Shown here: piece after piece, positions 6,744 through 35,946 of the stretch
Position numbering within the stretch: the stretch's first letter is position 1
Layout: each line of letters opens with the position of its first letter
NCBI GenBank assembly: GCA_044371425.1
Contig: JBILTR010000001.1
Location: 602,058 to 666,057 of the forward strand
Direction of reading: 5' to 3'
Origin: Pirellulaceae bacterium
GTDB taxonomy: Bacteria > Planctomycetota > Planctomycetia > Pirellulales > Pirellulaceae
DNA: 64,000 bases
Notes under the pieces: generated by a model
Told to the model about the DNA's origin: nothing
The model's input: the letters and a program-made list of their open reading frames with translations, nothing else
Databases searched by the model: none
Translations under genes and position numbers: made by a program

Positions 6744-6852
6744 GCTGCCTGGGAGGAGCCGCCTGGCACCCCCCGCCAGCGACTTGATCTTCCTGGGGAG
6801 GACCGATCCAGGTCGATTGGTTTACACTGGAGGCGGATGAGATCGAGCGAGG

Positions 6853-17740: not shown

Positions 17741-18010
17741 CAGAGAATAACCACGCGCATCGAGAGGAGGGCTGCCCGCGAAAACCTCAGCCGGGAGGCT
17801 GGCTCCCTCACATGATCCTACCTGAGTTTTCCGCCGGCTGCGAAGCAACAGGACGACAAGACCGATCAGGGTAGCAGAAAAGGATTGCCGCCTGAAATGC
17901 TCCCGAACGCTTTTCCGCTAAAATTCAGATGGTCGTTGCGGGATCGTTGGGCGGCTATCAGGGCAGAGGGACGAAGAGACCTGAAGGGTCTGTAGGAGTT
18001 GCGTTGCATC

Positions 18011-19426
18011 ATGGATCGGGAGCCGCCACAAGAAGAGCCAGCTGGCGTTGATGCGGCCGGAAGGAGCCAGCTGCTGCAAGCCAGTCGGCTCCATCTGGAG
18101 AGGATTCAGCTACCCAAGCTGCAGCGTCTTTTGGACCTAGCCCGCCTGGAAAGCCCTTTCTATCGAGAGCGACTGCGGGATGCACCGGTCAGCTTGCGAT
18201 CGGTCTCCGATTGGAAGGATCTACCGACCACGGAAAAAGAGGATTTGGTCGACCCGGATCACCCCATGGGGTTGGCCAAGCATCATCGGCTGCCACTGGA
18301 GTCGTACGCCCGGTACCATCGGACCAGTGGCACCATGGGCAAACCGATGGTGATGCTCGACACGCAGGAGGACTGGCGATGGTGGCGGGAAACCTGGCAA
18401 TGGGTGCTCGACGCCGCCCAGGTCACCAGGCAGGACCGGGTGCTGATGGCTTTTTCTTTCGGACCTTTCATCGGTTTCTGGTCTGCCCATGATGCCTGTT
18501 TGGACCGAGGGGCGATGGTGATCCCGGCCGGTGGGCTTTCCACCCCCTCTCGGCTCGACCTTCTCCTGGCATCCCGAGCCACGGTTCTGGCGTCGACCCC
18601 TTCCTATGCCCTCCATCTGACCGAATTGGCCCTGGAGAGGAATCTTCCGATTGCAGCCAGTCAGCTGCGCACCATTCTGGTAGCGGGAGAGCCAGGTGGA
18701 AGTCAGCAAACCGTTCGCAAGATGCTGGAATCCGCTTGGAACGCCAAGGTCATCGATCATGCCGGTGCCACCGAACTTGGGCCCTGGGGATTTGGCGACT
18801 CACAGGGTGCGGGGCTGCGAGTGATTGAGACGGAATTCTTCGCAGAGTTCCTTCCGTGGGCGCCTGCAGTTTCCCAATGGTCTGCCGAAGATGGTGCGAT
18901 CTCGCGGTCGGATAGAGACTTGGCGGAAAATTCTTTCGCATCGCCAGATGCCCTTCACCCTCCATCGCCTACCCATGAACTGGTCCTCACTCCCCTGGGC
19001 CGCTTCGGATCGCCATTGATTCGGTATCGCACCGGGGATCTGGTTCGTCCCGTATTCGAAGCTCACGGTTTCGTGCGCCTCGAAGGGGGAATCCTGGGGC
19101 GACGGGATGCGATGTGGGTCATTCGTGGCGTCAACATCTATCCAGGCAGTGTGGAGACGATCTTGAGGAGCGAATGTGGGGTGCGCGAGTTTCAGGTGCG
19201 CGCGGTGCGTCGTGGAGCTCTCGACCAACTGGAAATCGATGTGGAACCTGGACCGATCTCCCCTCCGCAGATCGCTCAAATCCTTCATGCCCGATTGGCT
19301 CTTCGAGTCGACGTTCGGGAAGTAGCCGAGGGCTCGTTGCCTAGGTCGGAAGGCAAGGCAAAAAGATTTCACGATCAGCGTCCCTCGTCCGCAAACAACC
19401 CCCATCAAGAAGACCGTCGAACATGA
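18011..19426 (+). CDS. Phenylacetate-CoA ligase-like adenylate-forming enzyme (PaaK / coenzyme F390 synthetase / CapK family).
   Basis: YHRTSGTMGKPMVM adenylation P-loop-like motif; YRTGDL near the C-terminus; family-typical length. Confidence 0.7.
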   Translation: MDREPPQEEPAGVDAAGRSQLLQASRLHLERIQLPKLQRLLDLARLESPFYRERLRDAPVSLRSVSDWKDLPTTEKEDLVDPDHPMGLAKHHRLPLESYARYHRTSGTMGKPMVMLDTQEDWRWWRETWQWVLDAAQVTRQDRVLMAFSFGPFIGFWSAHDACLDRGAMVIPAGGLSTPSRLDLLLASRATVLASTPSYALHLTELALERNLPIAASQLRTILVAGEPGGSQQTVRKMLESAWNAKVIDHAGATELGPWGFGDSQGAGLRVIETEFFAEFLPWAPAVSQWSAEDGAISRSDRDLAENSFASPDALHPPSPTHELVLTPLGRFGSPLIRYRTGDLVRPVFEAHGFVRLEGGILGRRDAMWVIRGVNIYPGSVETILRSECGVREFQVRAVRRGALDQLEIDVEPGPISPPQIAQILHARLALRVDVREVAEGSLPRSEGKAKRFHDQRPSSANNPHQEDRRT

Positions 19427-20724
19427 CCTGGAACTCGGCAAGGCTCCAATCAATACGCCAACAATTCCCTTCGCTCCAACGGCAACATGAGGACCAGGAA
19501 GCGATTTACCTGGATGGTCCTGCTGGGTCGCAGGTGCCGCGGCGGGTTGCGGAGCGAATCGCGGAGGTGATGATCGACCATCAAGCGAATCGGCATGGAA
19601 AATTTCGAACGAGCCAAGAGGTAGATGCTGTCATCGACGCCGCGCATCAGGCCGCCGCAGACTTCCTGGGCGCCAGCGATCCTGGGGAGACCGTTTTTGG
19701 CGCGAACATGACGACGCTCACCTTTGCCTTCTCTCGCGCCCTGGCGCGGACCTGGAATCGAGGCGACCGGATCGCTCTAACCCGCCTAGACCACGACGCC
19801 AATGTCACTCCCTGGAAAATCGCCGCAGAGGAATGTGGCGTGGAGGTGGTGTGGATCGATATCGACCCAGTCGACTGCACATTGAATCTGGAACAACTGG
19901 AAACAGCATGCAAGAGCCCCCTGCGGCTGCTGGCCATCACGGCGGCGTCCAACAGTGTCGGCACTCTGCCTCCACTAGATCGCTGCATTTCACTCGCGCG
20001 ACAAGCAGGAGCTTGGGTCTTTGTCGACGCGGTCCACCTCGCCCCCCACCAGCGCGTGGATGTCGCGCGACTGAATGCCGACTTCCTCATCTGCTCCGCC
20101 TACAAATTCTTTGGTCCCCATGTCGGAATCCTCTGGGGAAGAAGGTCGCACTTGGAGTCGCTGCGGCCCTACAAGGTGGAGCCAGCTCCAGAGACCGTCC
20201 CTGAGAAGTGGATGACCGGTACACAAAACCCGGCTACTCTGGCGGGGGTCACCGAAGCGATCGATTACCTCGCCTCTCTGGCGGATCCTTCGTCCCCTTC
20301 GCCGCTGCACTCCGCGCCCAATCGTTCCAGGCGGCAGCAACTCGATGATGCCTTTCGTCAGATCCAGCTACACGAAATGGGGTTGATCGAGCGGTTGATT
20401 GGAGGGCTGCAGACGATTCGAGGTGTGACCATCCATGGGATCACCGATCCGAAGCGATTTTGGGAGCGAGTGCCGACGCTGGCGCTATCGGCCGAAAACT
20501 GGTCCAGCATCGACTTGGCGCAGGCCCTTGGCGATCGCGGCATCTATGCGTGGCACGGAAACTACTACGCGCTCCAGTTGGCCCGGCGACTAGGGAAGGA
20601 GAAGACGGGGATGCTGCGATTGGGTTGCATGCACTACAACACGGAAGCGGAGATCGATCGCGTCGTCGCGACACTGATGCAGATCCTCGATAGTCGATCG
20701 GCGACTGGGGCTTCTCGCGCCTGA
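19423..20724 (+). CDS. Aminotransferase class V fold PLP-dependent enzyme (cysteine desulfurase / SufS-CsdA-like).
   Basis: FLICSAYKFFGPHVGILWG PLP-lysine region; DHDANVTPW; the ATGA start overlaps the stop of the upstream gene. Confidence 0.75.
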   Translation: MTWNSARLQSIRQQFPSLQRQHEDQEAIYLDGPAGSQVPRRVAERIAEVMIDHQANRHGKFRTSQEVDAVIDAAHQAAADFLGASDPGETVFGANMTTLTFAFSRALARTWNRGDRIALTRLDHDANVTPWKIAAEECGVEVVWIDIDPVDCTLNLEQLETACKSPLRLLAITAASNSVGTLPPLDRCISLARQAGAWVFVDAVHLAPHQRVDVARLNADFLICSAYKFFGPHVGILWGRRSHLESLRPYKVEPAPETVPEKWMTGTQNPATLAGVTEAIDYLASLADPSSPSPLHSAPNRSRRQQLDDAFRQIQLHEMGLIERLIGGLQTIRGVTIHGITDPKRFWERVPTLALSAENWSSIDLAQALGDRGIYAWHGNYYALQLARRLGKEKTGMLRLGCMHYNTEAEIDRVVATLMQILDSRSATGASRA

Positions 20725-20761
20725 TTGGATTTTCCCTGGCGCGCGTCCATCCCCACCCGTG

Positions 20762-20782
20762 GCATGGCCGTCCCGGCCATGC
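20762..20782. repeat. Solo copy of the repeat-family hairpin core (gcatggccg-tcc-cggccatgc).
   Basis: Same 9-bp stem as the hairpins at 21972-21992, 22266-22286 and 30994-31014. Shared flank cgtggcatggccgtc.cggccatgca. Confidence 0.6.
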
Positions 20783-20846
20783 AAAGTGATTCAAAGATAG
20801 AATGTCCTGTCTTCGTCGTTACTGCCCCAAACCCCTCTTCGATCCA

Positions 20847-20874
20847 TACCAGGCACCGACATCGGTGCCTGGTA
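20847..20874. terminator. 12-bp-stem hairpin (taccaggcaccg-acat-cggtgcctggta) between convergent genes; candidate bidirectional terminator.
   Basis: Perfect inverted repeat read directly. It lies between the aminotransferase (+) and PEP-CTERM (-) 3' ends. No U-tract. Confidence 0.35.
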
Positions 20875-20929
20875 TCAACGTCCGATCATGGACTTGCAGA
20901 TGCCTGCCAGTCCATTTCTGAAAACCAGC

Positions 20930-21808
20930 CTACGAGATTCTCGATTGGCCCTTCGACCGCCGCCGATTCACGACGCCAAGAAGCGCCGATCCTGCAGCAA
21001 AAATGGCGATCGACCCTGGCTCGGGCACCTGAGTCTCAGTGAAGGCATCGCGAGCCTCTGCCGAGGTGAGACCAAAAGCTAACTTGTAGGTTACTGAGGT
21101 CGTCTGGCCTGCACCCAAGAGAACTCGCAGTCCAAGGTGAGTTCCTTGATCATCGAAGAATCCGTTTCCATCCACCGGGAAATTAAAGAAGTTGTTCAAT
21201 AATGAACCAGTCGATATGTCAAAAGGTCCTCCGGAGGCAACAACAACTCTGGGATCCAGCGAACCAGCTACAAACGTATAGCCTGACAGCGCTGATGCTT
21301 CGCCCGCAACGGTACCTGCCAGACTGAGCACATCATTGAATGTCGAGTAACCATAAAGCGGAACTCCTTGGTCTGGATCGAAAGTGTCGAAATAGCTGAC
21401 CGTTGTTGGCGAGATACCCTGATTCGTCAACTGCGTGGTAATCCGCAGGGCATTTACACCGGGGACAAGACTGTAGCTCCGAGTGAATTGAATATCCGCT
21501 CCACCTCCCCCGTAATTGCCGCTGACTGTAGTGCCAGTGACGGTGACGAATTGTTGCGTGACGCCCTCAGCCGTATTGCGTACAAATGTCCCGGTATCTG
21601 TTCCATTCTGAAATCCAAAATCAGATACGTAGGTCCCCTGCCGAAAGAACTCCGTGCCATTGAATGTCACCGAGTTGATGGCTCCATTGCTGTCCGAGAT
21701 ATCGACGGAAAGCAATCCATTGCTGATCACTGCCGCTTGGAGCTCCGATCTTGTTGCCATCCCAACCAGTGCCGCCATGGCCAGAATTCCCGAGTGCATC
21801 CAGTTCAT
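20930..21808 (-). CDS. PEP-CTERM sorting-domain secreted protein.
   Basis: N-terminal signal peptide MNWMHSGILAMAALVGMA. The C-terminus VPEPGSIAIFAAGSALLGVVNRRRSK is the canonical VPEP + TM + Arg cluster. Confidence 0.75.
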   Translation of the reverse strand: MNWMHSGILAMAALVGMATRSELQAAVISNGLLSVDISDSNGAINSVTFNGTEFFRQGTYVSDFGFQNGTDTGTFVRNTAEGVTQQFVTVTGTTVSGNYGGGGADIQFTRSYSLVPGVNALRITTQLTNQGISPTTVSYFDTFDPDQGVPLYGYSTFNDVLSLAGTVAGEASALSGYTFVAGSLDPRVVVASGGPFDISTGSLLNNFFNFPVDGNGFFDDQGTHLGLRVLLGAGQTTSVTYKLAFGLTSAEARDAFTETQVPEPGSIAIFAAGSALLGVVNRRRSKGQSRIS

Positions 21809-21878
21809 CCTGAGGATCCTCCATTGCTTGAGACATCAAATCCTGCGAAATGCGTAGGTACGATAGGTGGTATGCTTT

Positions 21879-22412
21879 GCTGGAGTCAATGCCAGAAAGA
21901 GAAGAAGCGAAAAGTGGATGGCACCAATTTCGATAGCTAGCCTATCCCCAGTGCGTCTGCATCGACTCGTGGCATGGCCGTCTCGGCCATGCACATCGCC
22001 CCGTCTTTAGGACTAGCGCCGTTCAAAGCATTCCAGACCGCATCACAAACCCCCTTGCGATCGCAGCCTTTGGGATGCGAATGCCAGCAAAAGGCGCAAA
22101 AGGTGGGTGGCACCAATTTCACGAATGCCAGCAAAAAGCGCAAAAGGTGGGTGGCACCAATTTCAGCACCTTGCTGGAGTCAATGCCAGAAAGAGAAGAA
22201 GCGAAAAATGGGTGGCACCAATTTCGATAGCTAGCCTATCCCCAGTGCGTCTGCATCGACTCGTGGCATGGCCGTCTCGGCCATGCACATCGCCCCGTCT
22301 TTAGGACTAGCGCCGTCCAAAGCATTCCAGACCGCATCACAAACCCCCTTGGGATCGCAGCCTTTGGGATGCGAATGCCAGCAAAAAGCGCAAAAGGTGG
22401 GTGGCACCAATT
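21879..22412 (+). repeat. Repeat cluster L: about 1.8 tandem copies of a ~294-bp composite element containing a 9-bp-stem hairpin and tandem 44-bp sub-repeats with core caaaaggtgggtggcaccaa.
   Basis: Unit start gctggagtcaatgccagaaagagaagaagcg occurs at 21879 and 22173. Hairpins at 21972-21992 and 22266-22286. Sub-repeats at 22076-22165. Confidence 0.85.
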
Positions 22413-22734
22413 GGGGTGGAGTGCTAGCAAAAGAGGATGTGGTGCTATCGGCTACTTGAGGGCTCGCAGTCCCAGGCACAATGCCAGCATCCAGGGGGCG
22501 GTCAGGTTGCTAGCTAAGCTGGGAAATCCCCCTCCGACTCGTTCGAATCCTCTTCTTTGAACTGGCTCCCCGTCTGCGACTGACTCTAGACTCCTCCCAC
22601 TGCGGGTTCACGGAGGAGTCCGCATGCAAGGGTTGGGTGTGTCGAATTCCGAGTCGAGACAGCCTACCCCCTGGATTCGAGAGAACCGATCGAACACCCG
22701 ATCCCGCTGGCCTTTCGTCAAGTTGGCCCAGGCG

Positions 22735-24195
22735 ATGGAGTCCAAGAGCATGGAAGCTCGACACGTCCGTCCGGTAGCACCGCGCGCCACCATTTGTCTT
22801 TTGGTGTCCGCTTGTTTGGGTCTGAATCTGGAGTATGCAGCGGCGCAATACCTGCCAGCTGGAGTCCCGGTCGGTTTCTCCGCCCAGCCCGCCCCGTCCA
22901 TGCCGATAACTGCGTACCCGGCCCCCACCGCCTTTGCCCCGACGGTGATGGTCCCAGGAGCAGCATCCGCTCTCCCGCCGCACCAAGCTGCCGCTGGCAT
23001 GGGACGAGCTGTAACCCGCAACTTCATCGTACTGGCCGCTTCTCAGCAACAAGCCGACACGATGGCCGAGGCGGCCGAACGGTATCGATCGCAGTTGGCC
23101 AAGTACTGGCTGGGCCAGGAACTTCCCGATTGGCCACAGCCCTGTCCGATCAGCGTACGAGCTTCCCAGCGGTTGGGGGCTGGTGGATCGACCTCCTTCA
23201 CCCTCATCGGCGGCAGCGTCACAGGGTGGCGGATGCAGGTCCAAGGGAGCGAAGAACGGATCCTCGACAGCGTGCTGCCTCATGAAATCACACATACCAT
23301 CCTGGCGACTCACTTGGCCCCTCTTGGAAAACCGATTCCTCGTTGGGCCGACGAAGGCGCTTGTTCGACGATGGAGCATGCCAGTGAGACGGCCAAGCAC
23401 GAAAAGTATCTGATTCAATTCCTGCAGGAAGGCCGCGGAATAGCGTTCGCCGAAATGTTTCGGATGAAAGAATATCCATCCGATATCATGCCGCTCTATG
23501 CGCAGGGCTACAGCGTTGCGAAGTTCTTGATCGAACAGTCGGGTCCACAGGCTTTCGTGCAGTTCGTCGAATCTGGGATGCGCACCGAAGACTGGGTGGC
23601 GGCGCTGGAGCATCACTATGGGTATCCCTTGGTGGGCAAGCTGCAGACGGCTTGGAATCAGTGGGTCGCCAATGGACGCGGCGCGATCCAACCCTACACC
23701 GCAGTGGCGCTCGGATTGTCCCGTCGCTCCGTGGCGATCGCACAGAATACCTCCCGCGCTACGAACCCCCAGGGAGTCCGGCTGGCCAGCGCCCTCTCGC
23801 CAATCGAGTCGACCGCAGCTCCCTACCAGCCAGCCCTCGCCGCCAGGCCGATCAGTTCCAAGCCAGCCTCAGAGATGCTGACCGAGTCAGGGATTCCGAG
23901 CGATCTACCGGCCAACGAACTTCGTCAATCTTTGGTAGCTCCTGAGCCAATCTCGTTGCCGCCAGCCTTGGCGTCGCTCGCTTCCCCCCCTGCCTCGCTT
24001 CCGCTCCAAGCCCCCCCCGGCGATGCTGGAGCCGTCACTGGGTCTGCACCATCGATCGATCCCATGGCGCTGGCCGCACCTCCTTCTCTCGCAGGCCCTG
24101 CAGCTCTACCTGCACCCGCCTCGCCGGCCCCGCTGCCTTCATCGATCCCTTGGACTACCCCCGCCGCGTCCTCCCCGGATCGGATCGTCCGCTAA
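22735..24195 (+). CDS. Putative secreted zinc metallopeptidase-like protein (HExxH) with a long Pro/Ala/Ser-rich C-terminal tail.
   Basis: Signal peptide after MESKSMEARH; HEITH motif with downstream Glu; ~170-aa low-complexity tail. The antisense ORF 22510-23691 is Arg-rich junk. Confidence 0.5.
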   Translation: MESKSMEARHVRPVAPRATICLLVSACLGLNLEYAAAQYLPAGVPVGFSAQPAPSMPITAYPAPTAFAPTVMVPGAASALPPHQAAAGMGRAVTRNFIVLAASQQQADTMAEAAERYRSQLAKYWLGQELPDWPQPCPISVRASQRLGAGGSTSFTLIGGSVTGWRMQVQGSEERILDSVLPHEITHTILATHLAPLGKPIPRWADEGACSTMEHASETAKHEKYLIQFLQEGRGIAFAEMFRMKEYPSDIMPLYAQGYSVAKFLIEQSGPQAFVQFVESGMRTEDWVAALEHHYGYPLVGKLQTAWNQWVANGRGAIQPYTAVALGLSRRSVAIAQNTSRATNPQGVRLASALSPIESTAAPYQPALAARPISSKPASEMLTESGIPSDLPANELRQSLVAPEPISLPPALASLASPPASLPLQAPPGDAGAVTGSAPSIDPMALAAPPSLAGPAALPAPASPAPLPSSIPWTTPAASSPDRIVR

Positions 24196-24283
24196 AGCCA
24201 ACCATTGCTCCAGCTTCCGTTTCGGGCCATATTGAGAGAGTCAGAGGCTAGGTGGAATCGAACCGTGGGTTGCGATTCGCCTA

Positions 24284-27200
24284 GTGCCTCATCCCTCCTT
24301 TTGCCAGGGGCAGTCGATGGTCCAAGGCAACCGATCCCACCGACCCAATGCTAGGTTTCCCTTCCTCTTCGGCTGGTTCTGCCGGCCAGCGATCGCTTGC
24401 ATGGTACTGCTCCTGAGCGTGACGCAGACCCAAGGGGAGTCGATCGATTTTCAGCGCGAGGTTGCGCCGATCTTTCGCGAGCGATGTCATCATTGCCACG
24501 ATCGCACGCAGCGAGAAGGTGGCTTGCGACTGGATCGTCGCAGCGATGCGATCCTGGGTGGGGATTCCGGCCCAGCATGGATCCCCACCAAAGCCGAAGG
24601 AAGCCTTCTGATCGCTCGAGTCAGCGCAACCGATCCAGATCTGAGGATGCCTCCCGAGGGACCGCCACTGACTGCGGATCAAATCGAAGTGCTTCGCCGC
24701 TGGATCGATGCAGGCGCTCCTTGGAAAGAATCGATGGAGAGCGACGAAGAGCGATCGACGGTCGCTCATTGGGCATGGCAACCGATCACCCCACCGACCA
24801 TTCCGCCGGAGGATCGATCTGCGACAGCCGCCTCCTCTCCGATCGACCGATTCATTCGGCAGAGACTGTCCGAAGAGCGGCTACCACCCGCTCCCACTGC
24901 CGACCGCGCCACCCTGATTCGCCGCATTCACTTCGACTTGATCGGTTTGCCGCCCTCTCCAGAAGAGGTCGATGCATTCGTCGGCGATGATCGACCCGAC
25001 GCCTGGGAGAGGTTGGTCGATCGCCTTCTTGCCTCACCACAGCTTGGGGAGCGTTGGGCTAGACACTGGCTGGATGTCGTCCACTACGGCGACACGCATG
25101 GCTATGACAAAGACAAGTTGCGTCCCTATGCTTGGCCCTATCGCGACTGGGTGATTCGAGCTTTCAACGAAGACCGATCGTACGTGCAGATGATCGAACA
25201 GCAGGTGGCCGGCGACCAGCTCTTCCCAGATCAGCCCGATGGGATTGTGGCGCAGGGCATGATCTCCGCAGGCCCATGGGACTTTATCGGCCACGCAGAA
25301 GTCCCTGAAACCAAGACCGATGGCAAGATCGCTCGGCACCTGGATCGCGATGACATGGTGGCCAATGTGATCGGCACATTCTGCAGCGTGACCATCCACT
25401 GCGCTCAGTGCCACAACCACAAATTCGATCCCATCACCCAGGAAGACTACTATTCGCTCCACGCCGTCTTCGCGGCGCTCGATCGAGCGGATCGGGCTTA
25501 CTATGCCGATCCTGAGATCGGAAAGCTTGCCGGCTCCCTGAGCCAGCGGCGGCGCGAAGTGGCCGCGGAACAGGAAGCTCGTCTCAATCTGCTTCGCGAA
25601 CAGACCGGCGCGGAGATCGTCGAGGTGGAGCGACAATTGGCGGCGTCTCAGAAGTCCGCCGGAAACCCTACCGAAGCATTTGGATACCACAGCGCCCTGA
25701 GCGATCGAGCGGATGCAAAGAAATGGGTGCAGGTCGATCTTGGGGAAGCGATCTCTATGGCAGCCGTTTCGGTGCGCCCCTGTTACGACGATTTCAATCA
25801 GATCGGTGCAGGTTTTGGTTTTCCTAGACGTTATCGCATTCTTGGATCCAGCGACCCACAATTCAAGGACGCATCCACTCTGGTCTTGGTCGACCGCACC
25901 AAGGAGTCGCAGCCCAATCCAGGGACTCGGCCACTCCGATTCGACCAACTGGATGGACGCTTCCGTTATGTGCGACTGGAGGCGACGGAACTGGCACCTA
26001 GGTCGGGCGACTTCATGCTTGCCATCGCTGAGCTGGAGGTGTGGGATCGCGAGGGCCTGAATCTTGCGGCGGGGAAAGCCGTCGAAGCCTTCGATTCGAT
26101 CGAAGCTCCAGCGCGGTGGCAGAAAAGCAATCTGACCGACGGCAAGTTTCCGAGCGATACCTCGGATCAGCCTCCTTCCCACTGGGTCGCTCTAAGAAAC
26201 CAGCTCTTCCAGAAAGCCAATCCAACACTTTTCTCGCAGTGGCAGGAGGCGAGTGAGCTGCTGGATCAATTGGATCAGAAGATCAAGGAACTGCCTTCTC
26301 CACAATTGGCTTACGTCGCGACGGTGCACACTGGCAGCGGCGCTTTTGCGGGGACCGGTGCCAGCGGTGGGAAACCCAGGCCGATCCATCTCTTGCGACG
26401 AGGCAACATTCAGCAGCCTGCACAAGCCGTCGGCCCCGGCAGCCTCTCGATGCTGCGGCATGCACCCAATCGATTCCCGATGGACATGGGGGATACCGAG
26501 GGGAATCGACGAGCGGAACTGGCACGATGGATCGCTCATCGAGACAATCCGTTGACGTGGCGAAGTATCGCCAATCGCATCTGGCAATACCATTTTGGAC
26601 GCGGGATCGTCGAAACAAGCAATGATTTCGGCACCATGGGCTCGGCTCCCAGTCACCCCCAGTTGCTCGATTGGATCGCTTTACGCGTCTTGGAGAGCGA
26701 CGGGTCGCTCAAGCAACTTCATCGCGACATCCTACTTTCGGATACCTACCAACAAGCCAGTGCGGTCGACCTAGAGCGACAAGCTATGGGCGAGGCGGTG
26801 GATCGCGATAATCGGCTGTTGTGGAAGCAGAATCGGCGCAAGCTGGAAGCGGAGGCGGTGCGCGACGCGGTCCTAGCAGTCAGCGGTACACTGCAGCAAT
26901 CGATGGGCGGTCCGGGATATCAGGATTTTGTGATCGAGCACCCGGAGCATTCGCCTCATTATGAATACCACTTGGCAGATCCCTCGGACTGGAAGACCTG
27001 GCGCAGATCGATCTACCGCGTGATTGTCCGCAGCCAGACCCAGCCGTTCATGACCAGCCTCGACTGCGCCGATCCATCGATGCGCGTCGAGAAACGCAAT
27101 GAGAGCATCTCCCCGATCCAGGCACTGACGCTGCTGAACAACGGACTGATGGTCACGCAGGCCAGCCATTTCGCGAAAAGGCTGGAGCGGGAGGTTGGGG

Positions 27201-27361
27201 GGGATCTGGAGATGCAGGTGGAACGAGCGTTTCGGCTGGCGATCGGCCGTACTCCCAGCGAGGACGAGCGACAGGTGCTGCTCGATCTGCGACGGGAGTC
27301 TGGGCTAGCCAATCTATGCCGGGTGCTGCTGAATCTGAACGAGTTTCACTTCATCGATTGA
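24284..27361 (+). CDS. PSCyt1 / DUF1549 / F5-8 type C (discoidin) / DUF1553 (PSD1) protein of the planctomycete-specific cytochrome-like family.
   Basis: CHHCHD heme-like motif near the N-terminus; central discoidin-like segment YVRLEATELAPRSGDFMLAIAELEVWD; DUF1553-type C-terminus; 1025 aa. Confidence 0.8.
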   Translation: MPHPSFCQGQSMVQGNRSHRPNARFPFLFGWFCRPAIACMVLLLSVTQTQGESIDFQREVAPIFRERCHHCHDRTQREGGLRLDRRSDAILGGDSGPAWIPTKAEGSLLIARVSATDPDLRMPPEGPPLTADQIEVLRRWIDAGAPWKESMESDEERSTVAHWAWQPITPPTIPPEDRSATAASSPIDRFIRQRLSEERLPPAPTADRATLIRRIHFDLIGLPPSPEEVDAFVGDDRPDAWERLVDRLLASPQLGERWARHWLDVVHYGDTHGYDKDKLRPYAWPYRDWVIRAFNEDRSYVQMIEQQVAGDQLFPDQPDGIVAQGMISAGPWDFIGHAEVPETKTDGKIARHLDRDDMVANVIGTFCSVTIHCAQCHNHKFDPITQEDYYSLHAVFAALDRADRAYYADPEIGKLAGSLSQRRREVAAEQEARLNLLREQTGAEIVEVERQLAASQKSAGNPTEAFGYHSALSDRADAKKWVQVDLGEAISMAAVSVRPCYDDFNQIGAGFGFPRRYRILGSSDPQFKDASTLVLVDRTKESQPNPGTRPLRFDQLDGRFRYVRLEATELAPRSGDFMLAIAELEVWDREGLNLAAGKAVEAFDSIEAPARWQKSNLTDGKFPSDTSDQPPSHWVALRNQLFQKANPTLFSQWQEASELLDQLDQKIKELPSPQLAYVATVHTGSGAFAGTGASGGKPRPIHLLRRGNIQQPAQAVGPGSLSMLRHAPNRFPMDMGDTEGNRRAELARWIAHRDNPLTWRSIANRIWQYHFGRGIVETSNDFGTMGSAPSHPQLLDWIALRVLESDGSLKQLHRDILLSDTYQQASAVDLERQAMGEAVDRDNRLLWKQNRRKLEAEAVRDAVLAVSGTLQQSMGGPGYQDFVIEHPEHSPHYEYHLADPSDWKTWRRSIYRVIVRSQTQPFMTSLDCADPSMRVEKRNESISPIQALTLLNNGLMVTQASHFAKRLEREVGGDLEMQVERAFRLAIGRTPSEDERQVLLDLRRESGLANLCRVLLNLNEFHFID

Positions 27362-27393
27362 AGGTGGTTAGAACCAAGCACTGACAGCCAAGT

Positions 27394-28290
27394 TCAGATG
27401 TCGGCGCCTCGCGAAACACTCGCTTCCACCTGGGCTAGATGCGGATTCTTTTTTCTCGCCCAAAGGTTCAGCATCTCGACCCCCAGAGAGAAGGCCATGC
27501 CGAAGTAGACGTAGCCTTTGTTGATGTGAGTCCCCAATCCTTCAGCCACCAGCATCACGCCGATCATGATCAAAAAGGAGAGAGCCAGCATCTTGATGGT
27601 TGGATTGGCTTCCACAAAACGAGCGACTGGTCCGGCGAAAATCATCATCACGAAGATCGCGATCATCATCGCTGCAATCATGACGCGTACATCGTCCGCC
27701 ATTCCGACTGCGGTGATGACCGAATCGAGCGAGAAGATGATGTCGAGCAGGGCGATCTGCGCCAGAGCGCTGCCGAAGGAGGGCGGTTTGCGTAGGGAGT
27801 TCCCATGTTCGTCATGTTCTGGATCAATCAGGTGGTGAATCTCTTTGACACTTTTCACGAGAAGGAAAAGCCCACCTAGAATCAGGATGACATCCTTCCA
27901 GGAGACTTGGTTCATTTCCTGATTGTCTTTCAGTTGGAACCATTCTTTGATCTGCTGCCAGGGCAGCAGATCATCGACCTCAAAGATGGGCTTCACCAAA
28001 TGCATGATCCAAAAGATGCTCAGGATGAGCACGACGCGAAGCACCATTGCCAAGAGCAGACCCAGTTGCCGCGCTTTGGCCTGGCTTTCCTTGGGGAGTC
28101 TAGCGGTGATGATGGAGATGAAAACGACATTGTCGATCCCCAGAACGATTTCCATCGCGGCCAGTGCGATCAAAGCGATCGCAGCACCCATCGCCGTCGA
28201 AGAACCGTCGACGGCGATAGCACCACCTGCAGCCAGCAATCCCGATCCGGTCAGCCCAGTCCCCAGCAACCACTCCAGCATCATCAACAC
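27394..28290 (-). CDS. TerC family integral membrane protein (YkoY/Alx-like).
   Basis: Multiple TM helices; conserved TerC motifs LGIDNVVFISI and LSLDSVITAVGMADD. Confidence 0.8.
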   Translation of the reverse strand: MLMMLEWLLGTGLTGSGLLAAGGAIAVDGSSTAMGAAIALIALAAMEIVLGIDNVVFISIITARLPKESQAKARQLGLLLAMVLRVVLILSIFWIMHLVKPIFEVDDLLPWQQIKEWFQLKDNQEMNQVSWKDVILILGGLFLLVKSVKEIHHLIDPEHDEHGNSLRKPPSFGSALAQIALLDIIFSLDSVITAVGMADDVRVMIAAMMIAIFVMMIFAGPVARFVEANPTIKMLALSFLIMIGVMLVAEGLGTHINKGYVYFGMAFSLGVEMLNLWARKKNPHLAQVEASVSRGADI

Positions 28291-28641
28291 AGGTCCTCAG
28301 CAAGGAAAGAAATCGCGGCTGGACCAGATTTTTCTGCCAGTTCGCCCGCCGAAGAAGTGTACCACGTTTGCAAGCCATCTGCCGTCCTCGAGGAACCGGA
28401 GGGCAATGGCTAGATGGCAGGTCCGCAGTTGGATTGGCCCCGGTTTGATGGCTTGTTGCGGTAAAGATGGCTAGAATTCGAGCGTGGAGTTATGGGAGTT
28501 GGTGGCCGGGTGGGGTCTCCGGTCGATGGACCCAAATGCTTCCATGTCCCATCGCTCCATGGGCTATGGTTTTCAGGACCTAGTGTTTTCGGACCTGGGT
28601 TTGGAGGGGCTGGGTTCGGAAACCGGAAGGAACCGTCTGCG

Positions 28642-30744
28642 ATGGAACCGTTTCAAATAGTTTGCCCTTCCTGCCAAGGAAAACTGCGGGTAGCCAAAGA
28701 AAGTCTGCTCGGAAGAACCATCCCCTGCCCCCGGTGCAGTCAGCCGGTTGAAGTGGTTGATCCCCGGCGAGTCTTCGTTCGGCCGCCTGGGGGCGAGGCG
28801 TTGGATTCAGAGGCGATCACGAGGGGGGCGGATGAGTCGCTGGAGGGGGCTGCGCCCCATGCGAAGGCAGAATCGCTGGCTCCTCAAATGGCCGGCAAGC
28901 GTGGCTTCCGAAATGACCCAGCGTCGGCGGCACCCTCCATCCCTCCATCGCCGACGCCGACGCCGACGCCGACACCGCAGAGCAAACGCCAACCGAGTGA
29001 CGATCGGGCGATCGATCCGGCGGCTCAAGTGGCCTCCCTGGAGTTGCCGCAGAACTGGTCTGCCGATGGACTGAACAGCTCGCGACGATGGCTGCAGGCA
29101 ATCACCCTGGGATTGATCGGACTGCTGGCCGCTGGCGCGGGTTTCTTTGGGTTTGTACGACTTTTCCAGAATCAACAGAACAAGGGAGAGGTCGCGGTCG
29201 CTCCCCCATCCATCGAAGGCTCGGAAACTGCCATCGTCGATCGACAGGGGCCTCAAGACGAAGAGCAGCCCAAGCTGCAGGCACAGATCGCTGCAGCACC
29301 GACCTTAGATCCGAGCATCTTCCAGCCGAAGGTGGCTGAACCACCGAATGCCGCTCCATGGACGCCGCCCCTTGGGGATTCGGATCGGGAGCCGACTCTG
29401 CAGCACCAGGGAGTGGAGCCGGATCCAGCGGTACCGGCGCCTGAGGTTACGAGCACAAAGGAACCCCGTGACGATGCGCCCAAGGGAGGCGCCCAAGGGG
29501 GCGCGAAGAAGGAGCCAGAGGCAGGTGATGAGGAAGTGATCCTGCCGGAAGTGTTTCGGACTTTTCTTCCAGGCGGAGGTCTTGCGGCCGGTTCCCAGAT
29601 GTCCGATGCGATCCTCAGTGCCGAACCAGCTACCGTCCTCCCCGATGCTCCACAGAAGATTCGAATAGACCACTACGTGCATCCTCCAGCGGCGGAATTG
29701 GGAGATGTCGTCAAGCAGTTGGATTGGACGTTAGGGGAGGTGGAGCTCCCCAACATCCCGTTGCACGAAGCGCTGGGTATCTTTTCCCAATTGACCGGGG
29801 TGGGGTTGCAGCTAGACCTGCCGATGATGCTTCGATGCGGGGTTTCCCCTTCGACGCCTGTCTCCGGAAAGTTTCAAGACCTGAAGGTGTCTGAAGCGGT
29901 GAGCCAGTTGGTGGAGCCCTTGGGATTGCAGCTGATCGTCAGCGATGGCCAGCTCCCTTGGATCACTCCAAGTCCCCAGACGGTCGGAAAGCGACTCGAT
30001 CAACGATGGAGGATCGACGACCTTGGGGACATCGACGCCCAGCAGGGGTGGTGGAAGGCGATTGTGGAGGTGGTGCCCGAACTGGGGGATTGGTGTCGTG
30101 TGGAGGCTGGAGAGGTGATTTGGGATCCGAAGGCACCCAGCTCCGCCAAACTGTCGCTCAGCCTGACGCTGGATCGAATTCGATCAGCGATCGGAAAGCC
30201 GCCACAGTGGAAGTGGGCGGATGGCCAGTTGGAGGCGGGGTATCCTTGGGGAGGTTCGACCCAGTGGCTTCAGGAGACCGCCAGCAGCGCATCGCCACAG
30301 GATCGTCCATGGGTGCATGCGCTGATGCGAGCGGCGAAGGAGAGTGGTATCGATCTGGTGGTCGACTGGAAGGGACTGGCGTCGCATGGAGTCACCCCCA
30401 AGTCGTCCGAGACCGTCGTTTTGCGGAATCGAACTGTTCCTCAGATTTTCAAGAAGTACCGGGAAAGGCTGGCGTTAGAGTTGTTGGTGGTGGAACCTGG
30501 ATTGCTGTACCTGACCATTCCGGAGACCAGGCGAATGGATAGCCAGGTCTATCTGGTATCGCTACCTGCCGGGACCAATCCGCAAGATCTGGTCCCATCG
30601 CTTCGCTCCATCGCGCCGGCCAGTGCCTCGATGGAGAGCCTTTTGAGGGTGGTTCCCACGCCTCAGTCCCCGTGGTGTCTGGTCCGGACCTGCATGCCGT
30701 CGATTGAACAGTTGGAGTCGTTGCCGCCGGGAGCTGGTAGCTGA
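28642..30744 (+). CDS. Hypothetical membrane protein: N-terminal zinc-ribbon (CPSC..CPRC), one TM, Pro-rich linker, large uncharacterised extracytoplasmic domain.
   Basis: MEPFQIVCPSCQGKLRV...CPRCSQPVEV; TM WLQAITLGLIGLLAAGAGFFGFV. Confidence 0.5.
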   Translation: MEPFQIVCPSCQGKLRVAKESLLGRTIPCPRCSQPVEVVDPRRVFVRPPGGEALDSEAITRGADESLEGAAPHAKAESLAPQMAGKRGFRNDPASAAPSIPPSPTPTPTPTPQSKRQPSDDRAIDPAAQVASLELPQNWSADGLNSSRRWLQAITLGLIGLLAAGAGFFGFVRLFQNQQNKGEVAVAPPSIEGSETAIVDRQGPQDEEQPKLQAQIAAAPTLDPSIFQPKVAEPPNAAPWTPPLGDSDREPTLQHQGVEPDPAVPAPEVTSTKEPRDDAPKGGAQGGAKKEPEAGDEEVILPEVFRTFLPGGGLAAGSQMSDAILSAEPATVLPDAPQKIRIDHYVHPPAAELGDVVKQLDWTLGEVELPNIPLHEALGIFSQLTGVGLQLDLPMMLRCGVSPSTPVSGKFQDLKVSEAVSQLVEPLGLQLIVSDGQLPWITPSPQTVGKRLDQRWRIDDLGDIDAQQGWWKAIVEVVPELGDWCRVEAGEVIWDPKAPSSAKLSLSLTLDRIRSAIGKPPQWKWADGQLEAGYPWGGSTQWLQETASSASPQDRPWVHALMRAAKESGIDLVVDWKGLASHGVTPKSSETVVLRNRTVPQIFKKYRERLALELLVVEPGLLYLTIPETRRMDSQVYLVSLPAGTNPQDLVPSLRSIAPASASMESLLRVVPTPQSPWCLVRTCMPSIEQLESLPPGAGS

Positions 30745-30821
30745 CGAAAGTTCGCCAACGACGTCGACCGACCGGCTTGGTTCCCATCCCCTCGGGACCT
30801 AATCGCCATCATTCCTTCGGT

Positions 30822-31342
30822 GCTAGCATTCGTTAAGTGCCACCCACCTTTTGGCGTGCTAGCATTCGATTGGTGCCACCCACCTTTTGCGCCTTTTGCT
30901 GGCATTCGCATCCCAAAGGCTGCGATCCCAAGGGGGGGTGTGATGCGGTCTGGAATGCTTTGAACGGCGCTAGTCCTAAAGACGGGGCGATGTGCATGGC
31001 CGAGACGGCCATGCCACGAGTCGATGCTAGCATTCGATTGGTGCCACCCACCTTTTGGTGTTTTTGCTGGCATTTGGATCCCGCGTAGCATTCGTTAAGT
31101 GCCACCCACCTTTTGGCGTGCTAGCATTCGATTGGTGCCACCCACCTTTTGGTGTTTTTGCTGGCATTTAGATCCCGCGGGCTGCGATCCCAATGGGGTT
31201 CGTGAAGCGGATTGTGGCGTGTTGAACCGGGTTGGTCCCAAGGACAGGGGTGGGGGCACGGCCGAGACCGCCATGCCACGCGTCGATGCTAGCATTCGTT
31301 AGGTGCCACCCACCTTTTGAGATTGGTGCCACCCACCTTTTG
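30822..31342 (-). repeat. Repeat cluster R: the same composite element as cluster L in inverted orientation, with seven copies of the sub-repeat core (ttggtgccacccaccttttg on + strand) and the hairpin.
   Basis: The stretch 30876-31040 is the reverse complement of the unit at 21945-22115 with few mismatches. Hairpin at 30994-31014. A second, more diverged copy lies at 31120-31300. Confidence 0.85.
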
Positions 31343-31630
31343 AGGTTTTCTACCTGAAAGGGGGGGGTTCTTTTTGGGGGATCGTCGGCCTGATCTGGGT
31401 GATCCCATGAACGGGTGGTTCTTGGGTGGGTAGCGATGGGCTTGCTGCCGGGGTGGGGGAAAATTGCAACGAAATTTTTCGGAGTCATCAGAAATCAATC
31501 CAATATCTTTCAGATATCATTCGAATATCATTTTGTATCGCAGCGGAGTGTGGGCCGTTGGAACTTCGCCGCTCTTGGTGAGCGGTGGCGCGGCACGATT
31601 AGGGATACGACTGACAAGGAGCAGACCGAC

Positions 31631-32566
31631 ATGGAGACAACGATTGCAGAGAAACCATTTCAGCCAATTTCCGGGTGGGTCGCTCTTCCCGTTTGCTTGG
31701 GACTGCTGGCTTGCCTGCCCTTGGTGCTGATGACCGGCATGATCTTTCTCGGGATTCCTGCAGTACTCTTGGCTGTGGCCGGTTTTTTCGGTTTGTTCGG
31801 CCTGACGGCGATTGGCCCCAACCAGGCGCGCGTTTTCACGCTCTTTGGCGAGTACCGCGGAACGGCACGCCAGTCGGGTTTCTTCTGGGTCAATCCATTC
31901 TTCAGCAAGAAGCTGATTTCTCTCCGGGTGCACAACTTTGAAACGGGATCGTCCCGCACTCCCGAGATCAAGGATGCAGCGGGTAAGGTGACTCAGGAAA
32001 AGGGGCGAACTCATGGAAGGCCTTCCAAGGTCAACGACCGAAATGGCAATCCAGTAGAAATCTCTGCGGTGGTGGTTTGGAAGGTGGTCAACACCGCCGA
32101 AGCTTCCTTCCAGGTGGAGGATTATGAGGACTTCGTCGCGGTGCAAAGTGAAGCGGCGCTCCGTTCGATGGCGACGCGTTATCCCTACGACAGCGAAGAC
32201 CACGAAATGTCCTTGCGGGGCAACACCGAGGAAATCTGCCAGCAACTCCGGCAGGACATTCAGGAACGGTTGGATCAAGCTGGCGTGGAGGTACTGGAGG
32301 CCCGAATCAGCCACCTGGCGTACGCTCCTGAAATCGCTGCCGCCATGCTGCAACGGCAGCAGGCTTCTGCCGTGATCGCCGCGCGAGCCAAGATCGTTGA
32401 AGGGGCGGTTGGCATGGTCCAAATGGCACTGGAGCATCTCAAGAAAGATGGCATCGTGGAGCTAGACGAAGAACGTAAGGCTGCCATGGTCTCCAATCTT
32501 CTAGTGGTCCTCTGTAGCGACCGCAGCGCCCAGCCCGTGGTGAACACCGGTTCGCTTTATTCTTGA
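31631..32566 (+). CDS. SPFH / band-7 domain membrane protein (stomatin/HflK-C-like).
   Basis: AAGGAG RBS 8 nt upstream of ATG 31631; two N-terminal TM helices; SPFH-like core. Confidence 0.8.
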
Positions 32567-32614
32567 CCTTGCCTGGCCAGTAAGGCAAAGATCCATCGCA
32601 TGAGGTAGCCAGGC

Positions 32615-32884
32615 GTGGCGAAACGGGATAGTTTTCTGTTGCGGATCGATCCGCAGTTGATGGACCAACTGCGGCGTTGGGCTGAAGATGACCTCCGAAG
32701 CCTCAACGCGCAGATCGAGTTTCTTCTGCGTCGGGAATTGCGGAGAGCGGGTAGGTGGCCCAAGGAGTCGGCGTCGGAGGGCGAAGCGGAATGCCAGGGG
32801 ATGGCGGCAGAGCCATCCGAAGAGGGGGCAGGCGATCGGGATCACTCGCCCCCAATCGTCCAGCCCCCCGGCAGCGATGACTGA
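32615..32884 (+). CDS. Arc-type ribbon-helix-helix DNA-binding protein.
   Basis: FLLRIDPQLMDQLRRWAEDDLRSLNAQIEFLLRREL matches the Arc/MetJ RHH pattern. Confidence 0.5.
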   Translation: MAKRDSFLLRIDPQLMDQLRRWAEDDLRSLNAQIEFLLRRELRRAGRWPKESASEGEAECQGMAAEPSEEGAGDRDHSPPIVQPPGSDD

Positions 32885-32890
32885 GCAGGT

Positions 32891-34105
32891 GTGAGCATGT
32901 CCAGGCGACCGGCTGTGGCGCTTCTCATCGAAACCTCCAATGCCTACGCACGAGGGTTGCTCCGTGGGATCATCGAGTTCCAGAGAGAGCGAGATGCATG
33001 GAGCGTCTATCTTCCCGAGCAGGAGCGAGGGGCACTGCCGCCGCAGTGGCTGCGACGATGGCGCGGGGATGGGCTGATCGCACGCATCGAAAACGATGCG
33101 ATCGCCCGAGCCGTCCAAGGGACAGGCTTGCCCGTCGTCGACGTCAGTGCCGCGCGGAAAATCGAAGGGATTCCTTGGGTGGAAACCGATGACCGAAAGG
33201 TCGCCGAACTGGCCGCTCAGCACCTTCTCGACCGAGGATTCACCCAGCTGGCCTATTGCGGGGAACCGCAGTTCAATTGGTCGCGTTGGCGTGGAGAGGC
33301 ATTTCGGCAGTTCGTCGCTACCAAGCAGGCTAAATTCTGGGCTTATCCCGATCCCCCGTCGCAAAAGTCTCGCTCCTGGCTCCAAGAGAAAGCGCGACTG
33401 GCCAAGTGGCTGACCAGCCTGCCTCGCCCCATCGGAATCATGGCCAGCTACGACATCCAGGCTCGTCGCATCCTCGACCTGTGTCGCGAACTGCTGATCG
33501 CTGTTCCCGAGGAGATGGCGGTGGTCGGGGTCGATAACGACTCTCTTGTCTGCAATCTATCCTCTCCTTCCCTCTCCAGTGTCATTCCAGATGCTGTTCA
33601 AGCCGGCTATCGCGCCGCTCAATTGCTCGATGACATGCTGCGGGGAGCCGCGATTCCTGGTCAGCCGCTTCTACTTCCCCCCTTAGGCGTTGCCACGCGG
33701 CAGTCGACCGACGTGCTGGCAGTAGACGACCCCTGGATCGCGCAGGTCGCCAAGTGGATTCGCGAGCATGCTTGCGAGGGGATCCAGGTGGAAGATGTCG
33801 CCAGGCATTTCTCCGTCAGCCGCCGCATTCTGGAGCGACGGTTCAAGATGGCAACAGCTCGGACGCCTCATGCCGCTATCCTCAGCCAGAAACTGGAGCG
33901 AGTCGCCAGCCTCCTTCGCGACTCGAGCAGTTCGATCGAGCAAATCGCTTCCCGATGTGGCTTCGAACATCCTGAGTATCTTCAGGTGGCATTCCGCAAG
34001 CACTTCGGCACCACACCCGGTCTCTATCGCAAGACCAAAGGTCGCTCCATGTCCGGTCGCGCCGAGATCGATCCACCAGGACACCAGCCAGGGGCTTCGC
34101 GCTAG
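32891..34105 (+). CDS. XylR-type AraC-family transcriptional regulator (periplasmic-binding-protein-like sensor domain + AraC HTH).
   Basis: The N-terminal VALLIETSNAYARGLLRGI is XylR-like. C-terminal AraC HTH: IEQIASRCGFEHPEYLQVAFRKHFGTTPGLYR. Confidence 0.8.
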   Translation: MSMSRRPAVALLIETSNAYARGLLRGIIEFQRERDAWSVYLPEQERGALPPQWLRRWRGDGLIARIENDAIARAVQGTGLPVVDVSAARKIEGIPWVETDDRKVAELAAQHLLDRGFTQLAYCGEPQFNWSRWRGEAFRQFVATKQAKFWAYPDPPSQKSRSWLQEKARLAKWLTSLPRPIGIMASYDIQARRILDLCRELLIAVPEEMAVVGVDNDSLVCNLSSPSLSSVIPDAVQAGYRAAQLLDDMLRGAAIPGQPLLLPPLGVATRQSTDVLAVDDPWIAQVAKWIREHACEGIQVEDVARHFSVSRRILERRFKMATARTPHAAILSQKLERVASLLRDSSSSIEQIASRCGFEHPEYLQVAFRKHFGTTPGLYRKTKGRSMSGRAEIDPPGHQPGASR

Positions 34106-35874: not shown

Positions 35875-35946
35875 GAGTACGAGTACCGCTTCGCTCAGTA
35901 CGGGTACCGCTTCGCTGAGTACGGGTACCGCTTCGCTGAGTACGAG
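35875..35946. repeat. Tandem repeat: 21-bp unit gagtacgggtaccgcttcgct in ~3.4 copies.
   Basis: Copies at 35875-35895, 35896-35916, 35917-35937 and a partial 35938-35946. It lies between convergent genes. Confidence 0.85.

Follow-up and report, generated by a model that had tools for sequence, protein, structure and literature searches.

Two inverted repeat clusters flanking a four-gene block in a Pirellulaceae genome are probable members of a lineage-specific family of intergenic mosaic repeats

The bacterial interspersed mosaic elements (BIMEs) of Enterobacteria are intergenic clusters of variable copy number that combine the hairpins of repetitive extragenic palindromes (REPs) with other short conserved motifs. 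They are defined by regularly spaced REPs of alternating orientation (PMC2817692), and the roles proposed for BIMEs and REPs include mRNA stabilisation, transcription termination and DNA supercoiling (PMC2817692, PMC3733652). The REPINs of REPIN/RAYT systems (RAYT, REP-associated tyrosine transposase) are non-autonomous, non-coding, hairpin-based and persistent within lineages (Bertels and Rainey 2011, PMC3116915). The STAR elements of Staphylococcus aureus, direct repeats dispersed over intergenic regions, have a short conserved motif that punctuates recurring spacers, and their loci grow and shrink yet keep their positions within a lineage (Purves et al. 2012, PMC3532100). Here we analysed two clusters of a composite repeat, termed L and R, in a 64,000-nucleotide stretch from a Pirellulaceae bacterium (GenBank assembly GCA_044371425.1, contig JBILTR010000001.1, positions 602,058 to 666,057 of the forward strand), hereafter called the window. 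The clusters lie in opposite orientations around a block of four genes, an arrangement that a reading from the sequence alone had likened to a composite transposon or to an invertible, recombinogenic segment. We find instead that L and R are probably two loci of a family of intergenic mosaic repeats that is non-coding, interspersed and specific to one lineage, a genus-level clade of freshwater Pirellulaceae.

Each cluster was found to consist of three types of module arranged head-to-tail, namely, a REP-type hairpin (HP), a motif designated M20, and linkers. The clusters thus resemble BIMEs in being intergenic mosaics of REP hairpins and other short conserved motifs in variable copy number, but all modules of a cluster point one way, as they also do in arrays of bin-58, a Planctomycetaceae metagenome-assembled genome (MAG; loci L006, L017 and L064), and of the metagenome contig L117, and the main repeated module is M20 and not the REP. 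STAR elements are closest in architecture and share with the window arrays the habit of changing in size while staying in place; they are, however, unrelated in sequence, belong to another phylum and have no REP hairpin partner, so that the resemblance is architectural only. With REPINs the clusters have in common that they are non-autonomous, non-coding, hairpin-based and persistent in a lineage, but they lack inverted REP doublets, which the same hairpin does form in other phyla. The Neisseria dRS3/NIME (neisserial intergenic mosaic element) repeats and the pneumococcal BOX are similar as well, with a conserved repeat of ~20 nt parting variable segments of ~50 to 150 bp, variable module numbers and a role as recombination sites. 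Their sequences are unrelated to those described here, and dRS3, bounded by terminal inverted repeats, is an integration site for phage or IS110-type elements, nothing like which was seen in the window clusters. Overall, the clusters add to the known REP/BIME- or STAR-like intergenic repeats, the hairpin being of a known kind and M20 being new.

The presence of a shared core element in L and R, inverted between the two, was confirmed by comparing the window with itself. Tandem Repeats Finder placed cluster L at 21877-22412 (period 294, 1.8 copies, 97% matches) and cluster R at 30824-31319 (period 262, 1.9 copies, 83% matches), in agreement with the ~1.8 tandem copies of a 294-bp unit in L and the two oppositely oriented copies in R that had been read from the sequence; a repeat search additionally identified two 242-nt copies within L that were 98% alike. 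The inverted units shared by the clusters measured 159 to 180 nt at 93 to 98% identity: the repeat search matched 21959-22138 to 30848-31027 (180 nt, 93%) and 22253-22411 to 30869-31027 (159 nt, 97%), and blastn matched 21959-22117 to 31027-30869 (98%). The example given earlier for this inversion, 30876-31040 against 21945-22115, is a real match whose ends were drawn ~7 to 14 nt off, since the similarity begins at 21959 and 31027. Chance can be excluded as the source of the L/R similarity because the 15-mer AAAGGTGGGTGGCAC, with two mismatches permitted, had 12 matches in the window, all within L and R, against 0.11 expected, and the 24-nt hairpin had 5 matches against 0 expected. A profile search of the whole window confined the repeat family to L, R and one solitary hairpin, the position of which is kept in the relatives L117 (twice) and L127.

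The positions of the modules are given in Table 1. HP, GTGGCATGGCCGTCTCGGCCATGC, has a 9-bp stem and a 3-nt loop, with GTGG before the stem, and when folded as single-stranded DNA it reached -12.6 kcal/mol, far better than shuffled sequences (z = -4.17). M20 is the 24-nt motif CAAAAGGTGGGTGGCACCNATTGA, within which lies the 9-bp near-palindrome GGTGGCACC; the logo of 60 distinct instances from at least five genomes reads CAAAAGGTGGGTGGCACC[A/G/T]ATTGA and has ~18 invariant positions. The linkers include a spacer of ~85 nt behind HP, a recurrent GAATGCYAGCA and the small palindrome GATAGCTAGCCTATC. The modules of cluster L follow the order M20'-HP-spacer-M20-M20-M20'-HP-spacer-M20, and cluster R contains nine M20 copies and two HP units.

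Table 1. Features of the repeat clusters and their surroundings (window coordinates), followed by M20 arrays at loci of bin-58
Feature	Position	Strand	Remarks
Solitary REP-type hairpin GTGGCATGGCCGTCCCGGCCATGC	20759-20782	+	35 nt past the aminotransferase stop codon
Cluster L, 1.8 copies of a 294-bp mosaic unit	21877-22416	+	Separates the divergently oriented PEP-CTERM (-) and peptidase (+) genes
Degenerate M20 module AAAAGTGGATGGCACCAATTTCG	21885-21931	+	Counterpart in unit 2 at 22176-22225
L unit 1 REP hairpin	21969-21992	+	GTGG tag, 9-bp stem CATGGCCG(G), TCT loop
L unit 1 spacer, ~85 nt	21993-22077	+	Neutral rate; no supported structure
Two tandem 44-bp M20 modules CGAATGCCAGCAAAARGCGCAAAAGGTGGGTGGCACCAATTTCA	22078-22165	+	
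L unit 2 REP hairpin	22263-22286	+	
Last M20 module of cluster L	22372-22415	+	
Four-gene block	22624-30744		
Peptidase-MA-like gene	22624-24195	+	Four-gene block
PSCyt1/PSCyt2/PSD1 gene	24284-27361	+	Four-gene block
TerC gene	27394-28290	-	Four-gene block
Zinc-ribbon membrane protein gene	28492-30744	+	Four-gene block
Cluster R, 1.9 copies of a 262-bp mosaic unit and extra M20 modules	30820-31350	-	Occupies the gap between the zinc-ribbon and SPFH/Band7 genes
Two M20 modules, block-proximal end of cluster R	30824-30905	-	
Unit R1 (hairpin 30994-31017, spacer, M20)	30869-31027	-	97-98% identical to L units; recent conversion or copy
Further M20 modules of cluster R	31028-31073, 31086-31167, 31290-31350	-	
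Unit R2 (hairpin 31256-31279, spacer, M20)	31127-31305 / 31131-31289	-	Old diverged copy
M20 array L006 (bin-58)			Upstream of HAMP histidine kinase; seven M20; one M20 at the orthologous site L069 (JBJSWM)
M20 array L017 (bin-58)			Adjoins DUF4332 protein
M20 array L064 (bin-58)			Between parB and GH16 gene; nine copies, 58-60-bp unit
M20 array L083 (bin-58)			Adjoins unannotated open reading frame

The earlier description of the element as composite and devoid of coding capacity held. Open reading frames in the clusters had no Pfam match, single-base indels between copies break the frames, and successive units of a relative, spaced by 209 and 231 bp, fall in different frames. An 86-amino-acid reading frame lying wholly within cluster L (21974-22234), which is called as a gene in Joint Genome Institute (JGI) assemblies, likewise matched nothing in Pfam and is a repeat artefact. 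The element had also been judged not to be a CRISPR array, rightly so, as what separates the M20 copies is itself repetitive and no cas genes lie nearby. A MITE (a miniature transposable element with inverted repeats) was rejected too, the units being bounded by direct M20 copies and not by terminal inverted repeats with a target-site duplication.

That the clusters instead encode a structured non-coding RNA, such as a small RNA or a sponge with repeated motifs, is very improbable. Whole-unit folds were no better than those of shuffled sequences (z = -1.4 and -1.2), the fold of the M20 module was not significant (z about 0), and RNAalifold detected 0 compensatory pairs outside the hairpin. Patterns resembling sigma-70 promoters or intrinsic terminators were not above chance when set against shuffles, and an Rfam search, as had been proposed for the unit, retrieved nothing relevant from the window at the gathering threshold or from the clusters at E<=1. 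What speaks for an RNA is the repetitive motif architecture, the intergenic location, and the fact that the change in the R2 hairpin, which carries one G-T wobble and one mismatch, is G-U-compatible on the M20-bearing strand (+ in L, - in R). A scan of the window for tRNA and tmRNA found none.

The statement that the repeat is not a known REP was mistaken as far as the hairpin module is concerned. HP can be placed in the GTAG/GTGG-tagged REP superfamily by its palindromic stem-loop (20 to 40 nt in the superfamily), its unpaired tag and its complementary stem variants, and probably also by a high, mostly extragenic copy number, which makes four of the five defining features, the fifth being a cognate RAYT. 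REPs of this kind are short stem-loops tagged with GTAG, which is altered to GTGG in a family of Opitutus terrae (Di Nocera et al. 2013, PMC3733652), and the GTAG-19 REPs of O. terrae encode HGRDARAT or GTGVPPV when they are intragenic (PMC3733652, Additional file 3). We infer by back-translation that these two peptides correspond to the two strands of GTGGCACGGGCGTCCCGCCCGTG. The GTAG-19 stem is CACGGGCG and that of the window hairpin CATGGCCG; both REPs have an unpaired 5' GTGG, a short GC-rich stem and a TCY loop, and they further agree in complementary stem variants and probably in high copy number and extragenic location. In contrast to the GTAG-tagged REPs, however, the hairpins of this clade are direct, not alternating, and are accompanied by a non-palindromic partner motif. 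In a set of 64 hairpins outside the selection imposed by the search pattern, two stem pairs covaried: pair 1 was TA in 40 and CG in 20, and pair 3 was GC in 48 and CG in 13, with at most four non-pairs, while the tag was GTGG in 47 and GTAG in 16; all five window copies carry GTGG.

The distribution of the hairpin was determined with a pattern scan of one genome per species, the figures given here being those of the matches listed. The same 24-mer was present at no fewer than 110 loci, often as inverted pairs, in Planctomycetota (Pirellulaceae, Planctomycetaceae, Phycisphaerae and Tepidisphaeraceae), Acidobacteriota, Armatimonadota, Hydrogenedentota, Sumerlaeota and others. At least 20 loci were found in Fontivita pretiosa and 10 in bin-58, to be set beside the five copies in the 64-kb window, and in the loci of the scan the hairpin adjoins relatives of the form GTGGCAYGGSCGTCYCGSCCRTG.

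Some of these lineages carry composites of their own. In a Planctomycetaceae MAG, binchicken_co8_31 (CAYMAP), an element of ~130 nt has CTGTATGAAAAC...GTTTTCATACAG as its terminal inverted repeats, holds this REP hairpin together with three further GC-rich hairpins, and looks like a true MITE made of REPs; it was seen at at least 15 loci (L014, L019, L023, L030, L051, L066, L075-L077, L080, L087, L093, L099, L106 and L108). Fontivita pretiosa (NZ_CP191258) has a REPIN-like composite, also of ~130 nt and present at at least 20 loci (for example, L010, L021, L033 and L038), in which GAGCCAAYT is followed by the same REP, AGGGTGCRCTCGARTTCGAAAGTCCGA... and an inverted REP. The hairpin and neighbouring family members were also observed in an archaeal contig of a Methanoregulaceae MAG (L025, JADZEW010000035), where contamination or horizontal transfer is possible. 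In a contig of the Rariglobus hedericola type (CBCRVV010000005; L150, 9880-10640) we observed a classic REPtron, in which the gene for a Y1 transposase with 52% identity to Oter_2468 has GTAGGGCCTGAC...GTCAGGCC REPs on either side, in both orientations, a family unlike that of the window.

We then considered the genes bracketed by the clusters. Pfam upheld the gene content that had been read for the block, with weak matches for the peptidase (Peptidase_MA_2) and the zinc-ribbon protein and matches to PSCyt1/PSCyt2/PSD1 and TerC. The ten genes of 17999-34105 encode an AMP-binding enzyme, a class-V aminotransferase, a PEP-CTERM protein, the peptidase-MA-like, PSCyt1/PSCyt2/PSD1, TerC and zinc-ribbon proteins of the block, an SPFH/Band7 protein, an unannotated reading frame that overlaps the SPFH gene on the opposite strand, and a XylR/AraC regulator; none of them has a transposase, integrase or recombinase domain in Pfam. 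The GC content of the block resembles that of its surroundings. In GCA_041442895.1, the peptidase of which is 92% identical, gene order and orientation are the same from a guanylate cyclase gene through XylR, except that the PEP-CTERM gene is absent. Three metagenome contigs, L117 and L118 (both 81% peptidase identity) and L119 (78%), are collinear with the window over all the window genes that they cover. L117 spans the AMP-binding gene through XylR, whereas L118 and L119 begin in cluster L and L119 stops within the SPFH gene. In all three, the two intergenic positions that hold clusters in the window also hold one each, oriented alike (L +, R -), with a different module content: in L117, cluster L has three HP units and cluster R has seven M20 copies and zero HP. 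In bin-58 (L050) only cluster L has an orthologue, the contig stopping inside the cluster.

These comparisons leave little room for a composite transposon or mobile island, in which the inverted clusters would be the ends of an 8.4-kb element moving the four genes. Multi-copy repeats do lie inverted around a gene block, and direct arrays of a ~20-nt motif at each end superficially recall the ends of Tn7- and Mu-type elements, which carry multiple transposase-binding sites. Set against this are the lack of a transposase, integrase or recombinase domain in the block and its neighbours, the unremarkable GC content of the block, and flanks and internal order that are the same in relatives at 78 to 92% identity. 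Moreover, the third cluster of the family in L117 arose by a local tandem duplication and not with a second element, M20 arrays elsewhere are unpaired, and neither a terminal inverted repeat nor a target-site duplication can be seen at the outer borders of the clusters. We therefore regard this explanation as hardly credible. The sequence-only reading had set against mobility the case of repeats scattered over unrelated sites combined with a conserved gene order in relatives lacking them; the repeats are indeed scattered, but they persist in the very relatives that have the conserved gene order. Overall, the four genes of the block are neighbours of the repeats and not part of a mobile unit.

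An invertible segment, the block of which would be flipped at low frequency by homologous recombination between L and R (159 to 180 nt, 93 to 98% identity, 8.5 to 8.7 kb apart), would swap the genes facing the PEP-CTERM and SPFH flanks. Homology of this length and identity should suffice for RecA-dependent exchange, and gene conversion between the two clusters has evidently occurred (see below). However, the window arrangement was found in every assembly crossing cluster L, although assemblies show the majority orientation only, and the orientation is the same in all related species, with no site-specific recombinase adjacent. In the assemblies spanning cluster L (L140, which is 100% identical to window 14930-27808, a JGI contig of 26.5 kb, and five further similar places), the PEP-CTERM gene lies beside the peptidase gene and never beside the zinc-ribbon gene. 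The identical PEP-CTERM protein was found in 14 contigs, and each one that crosses cluster L then has the peptidase, PSD1 and TerC genes. Short-read (Logan) contigs of 8451 to 8498 bp correspond exactly to the block and break inside both clusters, as expected from multi-copy repeats. In outgroups at 50 to 57% identity synteny is lost, only the AMP-binding/aminotransferase pair being common to them and the window, and neither M20 nor the hairpin was found. Neither inversion nor absence of the block was seen among the relatives at 78 to 92%. We consider an invertible segment improbable.

The arrays themselves are inherited vertically in fixed intergenic positions, while copy number and module content vary between relatives and units are homogenised within a genome. 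Between species (window against units of the L117 type), identity was 100% for HP and 90 to 100% for the M20 region but 82 to 84% for the ~85-nt spacer, background divergence corresponding to 79 to 91% identity in unique intergenic DNA and 83 to 90% in genes. The spacer therefore evolves at the neutral rate, whereas HP and M20 stay constant. Among units L1, L2 and R1 of the window, in contrast, the spacer was 97 to 98%, the M20 region 97 to 100% and HP 100% identical. This likeness within the genome, exceeding that between species, implies gene conversion, including conversion between L and R.

The two units of cluster R have different histories. R2 is 75 to 77% identical to the other three window units (69 to 70% in the spacer), and although the cores of R1 and R2 are only ~77% identical, the modules flanking them are 98% identical over 61 nt. 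R1 is 97 to 98% like the L units, whereas the orthologous L units of relatives are 87 to 88% identical to those of the window, and the R clusters of relatives have no unit of the R1 type, thus indicating a recent exchange between L and R. On these alignments, the simplest reading would be that a recent gene conversion or copy event carried an L-type core into cluster R, the direction from L to R being suggested by the lack of HP units in the R clusters of relatives. The term recombinogenic, used of the locus before, is apt in the limited sense of this recent sequence exchange, but not in that of a detectable invertible segment.

M20 is new and restricted to this clade. It has no match in Rfam (the window at the gathering threshold, both clusters at E<=1), and the literature searched with the M20 and hairpin strings returned unrelated primer matches only. 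Among all fetched loci, M20 occurred only in close relatives of the window and in two MAGs, bin-58 (JBEISR) and Pirellulaceae JBJSWM; it was absent, as was HP, from ~190 kb of relatives at 50 to 59% protein identity, and its 11 single matches in viral contigs are about what chance predicts for a 16-mer. In bin-58, M20 arrays of single orientation stand at at least four unrelated intergenic sites (Table 1), none of which aligns to the window, with no inverted partner inside each 8-kb locus and with variable orientation relative to the downstream gene.

Several functions were considered for M20 and rejected. The largest array (L064, 5990-6690, JBEISR010000005) lies directly downstream of the chromosomal parA-parB operon, but M20 is not parS, because L064 has canonical parS-like sites, GTTTCACGTGAAAC, upstream of parA (3881-3896 and 4083-4098). 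The TGGCAC of M20 does not form a sigma-54 promoter, the downstream TTG being 2 nt too near and GC lacking at -12. A dispersed word of the Chi or KOPS kind was dismissed because sub-words of M20 outside the arrays are merely at expectation, and a two-tetrad G-quadruplex in GGTGGGTGG because the fourth G-run that it needs is not conserved.

These results bear on a further explanation, which is that the arrays are selected by the host as binding sites, M20 being the operator of a nucleoid-associated, regulatory or recombination protein, like the sites for integration host factor (IHF) and gyrase in the BIMEs of E. coli. The ~18 nt of M20 that are invariant over distinct instances and genomes while the linkers are neutral, the near-palindrome within M20 and the keeping of loci across species all favor such a role, and STAR elements, for which a function has been proposed, are equally conserved in place (PMC3532100). 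On the other hand, the spacing between M20 copies ranges from 22 to 61 bp without constant helical phase, the neighboring genes share no functional theme, the orientation toward the downstream gene varies, M20 is neither a sigma-54 promoter nor parS and its sub-words occur outside the arrays no more often than expected; the conservation, moreover, could be explained equally well if a mobilising enzyme recognised M20. We thus deem host-selected binding arrays unlikely. The broader proposition that M20 is the recognition site of some protein, either a new mobilising enzyme that makes direct REP arrays or a chromosome-organising or regulatory factor of this clade, the arrays and with them the convergent pair of L and R then being selected functional landmarks, has somewhat more in its favor, although we still doubt it; it is kept alive by the conservation of ~18 nt across species in surroundings that drift neutrally.

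For a vertically inherited family of mosaic repeats, copy number could change by unequal recombination or replication slippage, and new loci would be seeded rarely by an enzyme acting on single-stranded hairpin DNA, for example, a HUH transposase like the RAYTs, as in other REP families. That L and R point in opposite directions would then be an inherited accident of the placement of two arrays; alternatively, a single array may have been split by one old inversion that broke within it, leaving two inverted halves. As likely side effects, mRNAs would carry hairpins at their 3' ends and recombination would have local hot spots. Several observations weigh against this picture. The seeding enzyme is a postulate, since a tblastn search of low power with seven RAYT/TIRYT probes (YafM of E. 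coli and six sequences taken from Additional file 5 of PMC3733652) detected neither a RAYT nor another HUH gene, whether in the window or across ~1.1 Mb of fetched loci, and since the only traceable RAYT lineage (Oter_2468-like, Rariglobus) is flanked by another REP, GTAGGGCCTGAC...GTCAGGCC, homologues of Oter_2468 being few and linked to that different family. The hairpins of the arrays all have one orientation, unlike those of classical BIMEs and REPINs. The conservation of M20, as judged from the aligned copies, exceeds what a purely selfish or neutral element would need and points to a recognition function. Finally, copy number and genome-wide orientation are those of a relative at 86% nucleotide identity and of the matches listed, not of the source genome.

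The flank of cluster L has been unstable at the PEP-CTERM gene, of which relatives have 0 (GCA_041442895.1, only a 730-bp gap), 1 (the window) or 2 copies (L117). In L117 (Ga0315904_10000201, 5890-9760, corresponding to window 20576-22416), the last 48 aminotransferase codons, the solitary REP, the PEP-CTERM gene and the repeat cluster were duplicated in tandem as one unit, with PEP-CTERM copies at 5890-6765 and 7784-8656. In L127 (Ga0315906_10018370, 4700-4960, corresponding to window 20690-20800), a full HP-spacer-M20 unit stands where the window has the solitary REP and is followed by a 36-bp duplicate of the 3' end of the aminotransferase gene; here the solitary REP seems to have anchored a templated extension.

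Between the convergent aminotransferase and PEP-CTERM genes, the window also has a perfect hairpin with a 12-bp stem, ATACCAGGCACCGACATCGGTGCCTGGTAT (20843-20872), which is kept in L117 and is probably a bidirectional terminator; a chance-level Rfam match (cow-rumen-1, E = 0.68) overlaps it. Two other tandem repeats of the window are unrelated to the family, namely, a 21-bp unit repeated 3.4 times at 35875-35946 (GAGTACGAGTACCGCTTCGCT) and CGCCGA repeated 4.8 times within the zinc-ribbon gene at 28949-28977.

For annotation, these findings mean that L and R should not be labelled as transposon ends, nor the 86-amino-acid reading frame of cluster L as a gene. The arrays fragment short-read assemblies of the clade and are local hot spots of change in gene copy number, as exemplified by the PEP-CTERM gene. 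More broadly, one type of REP hairpin is common to several phyla almost letter for letter and has been built into different lineage-specific composites: direct arrays with M20 in the clade of the window, a MITE-like element in the Planctomycetaceae MAG and a REPIN-like unit in Fontivita. The strict conservation of M20 would mark a sequence-specific recognition event in Planctomycetota, a phylum in which few DNA-protein interactions have been characterised.

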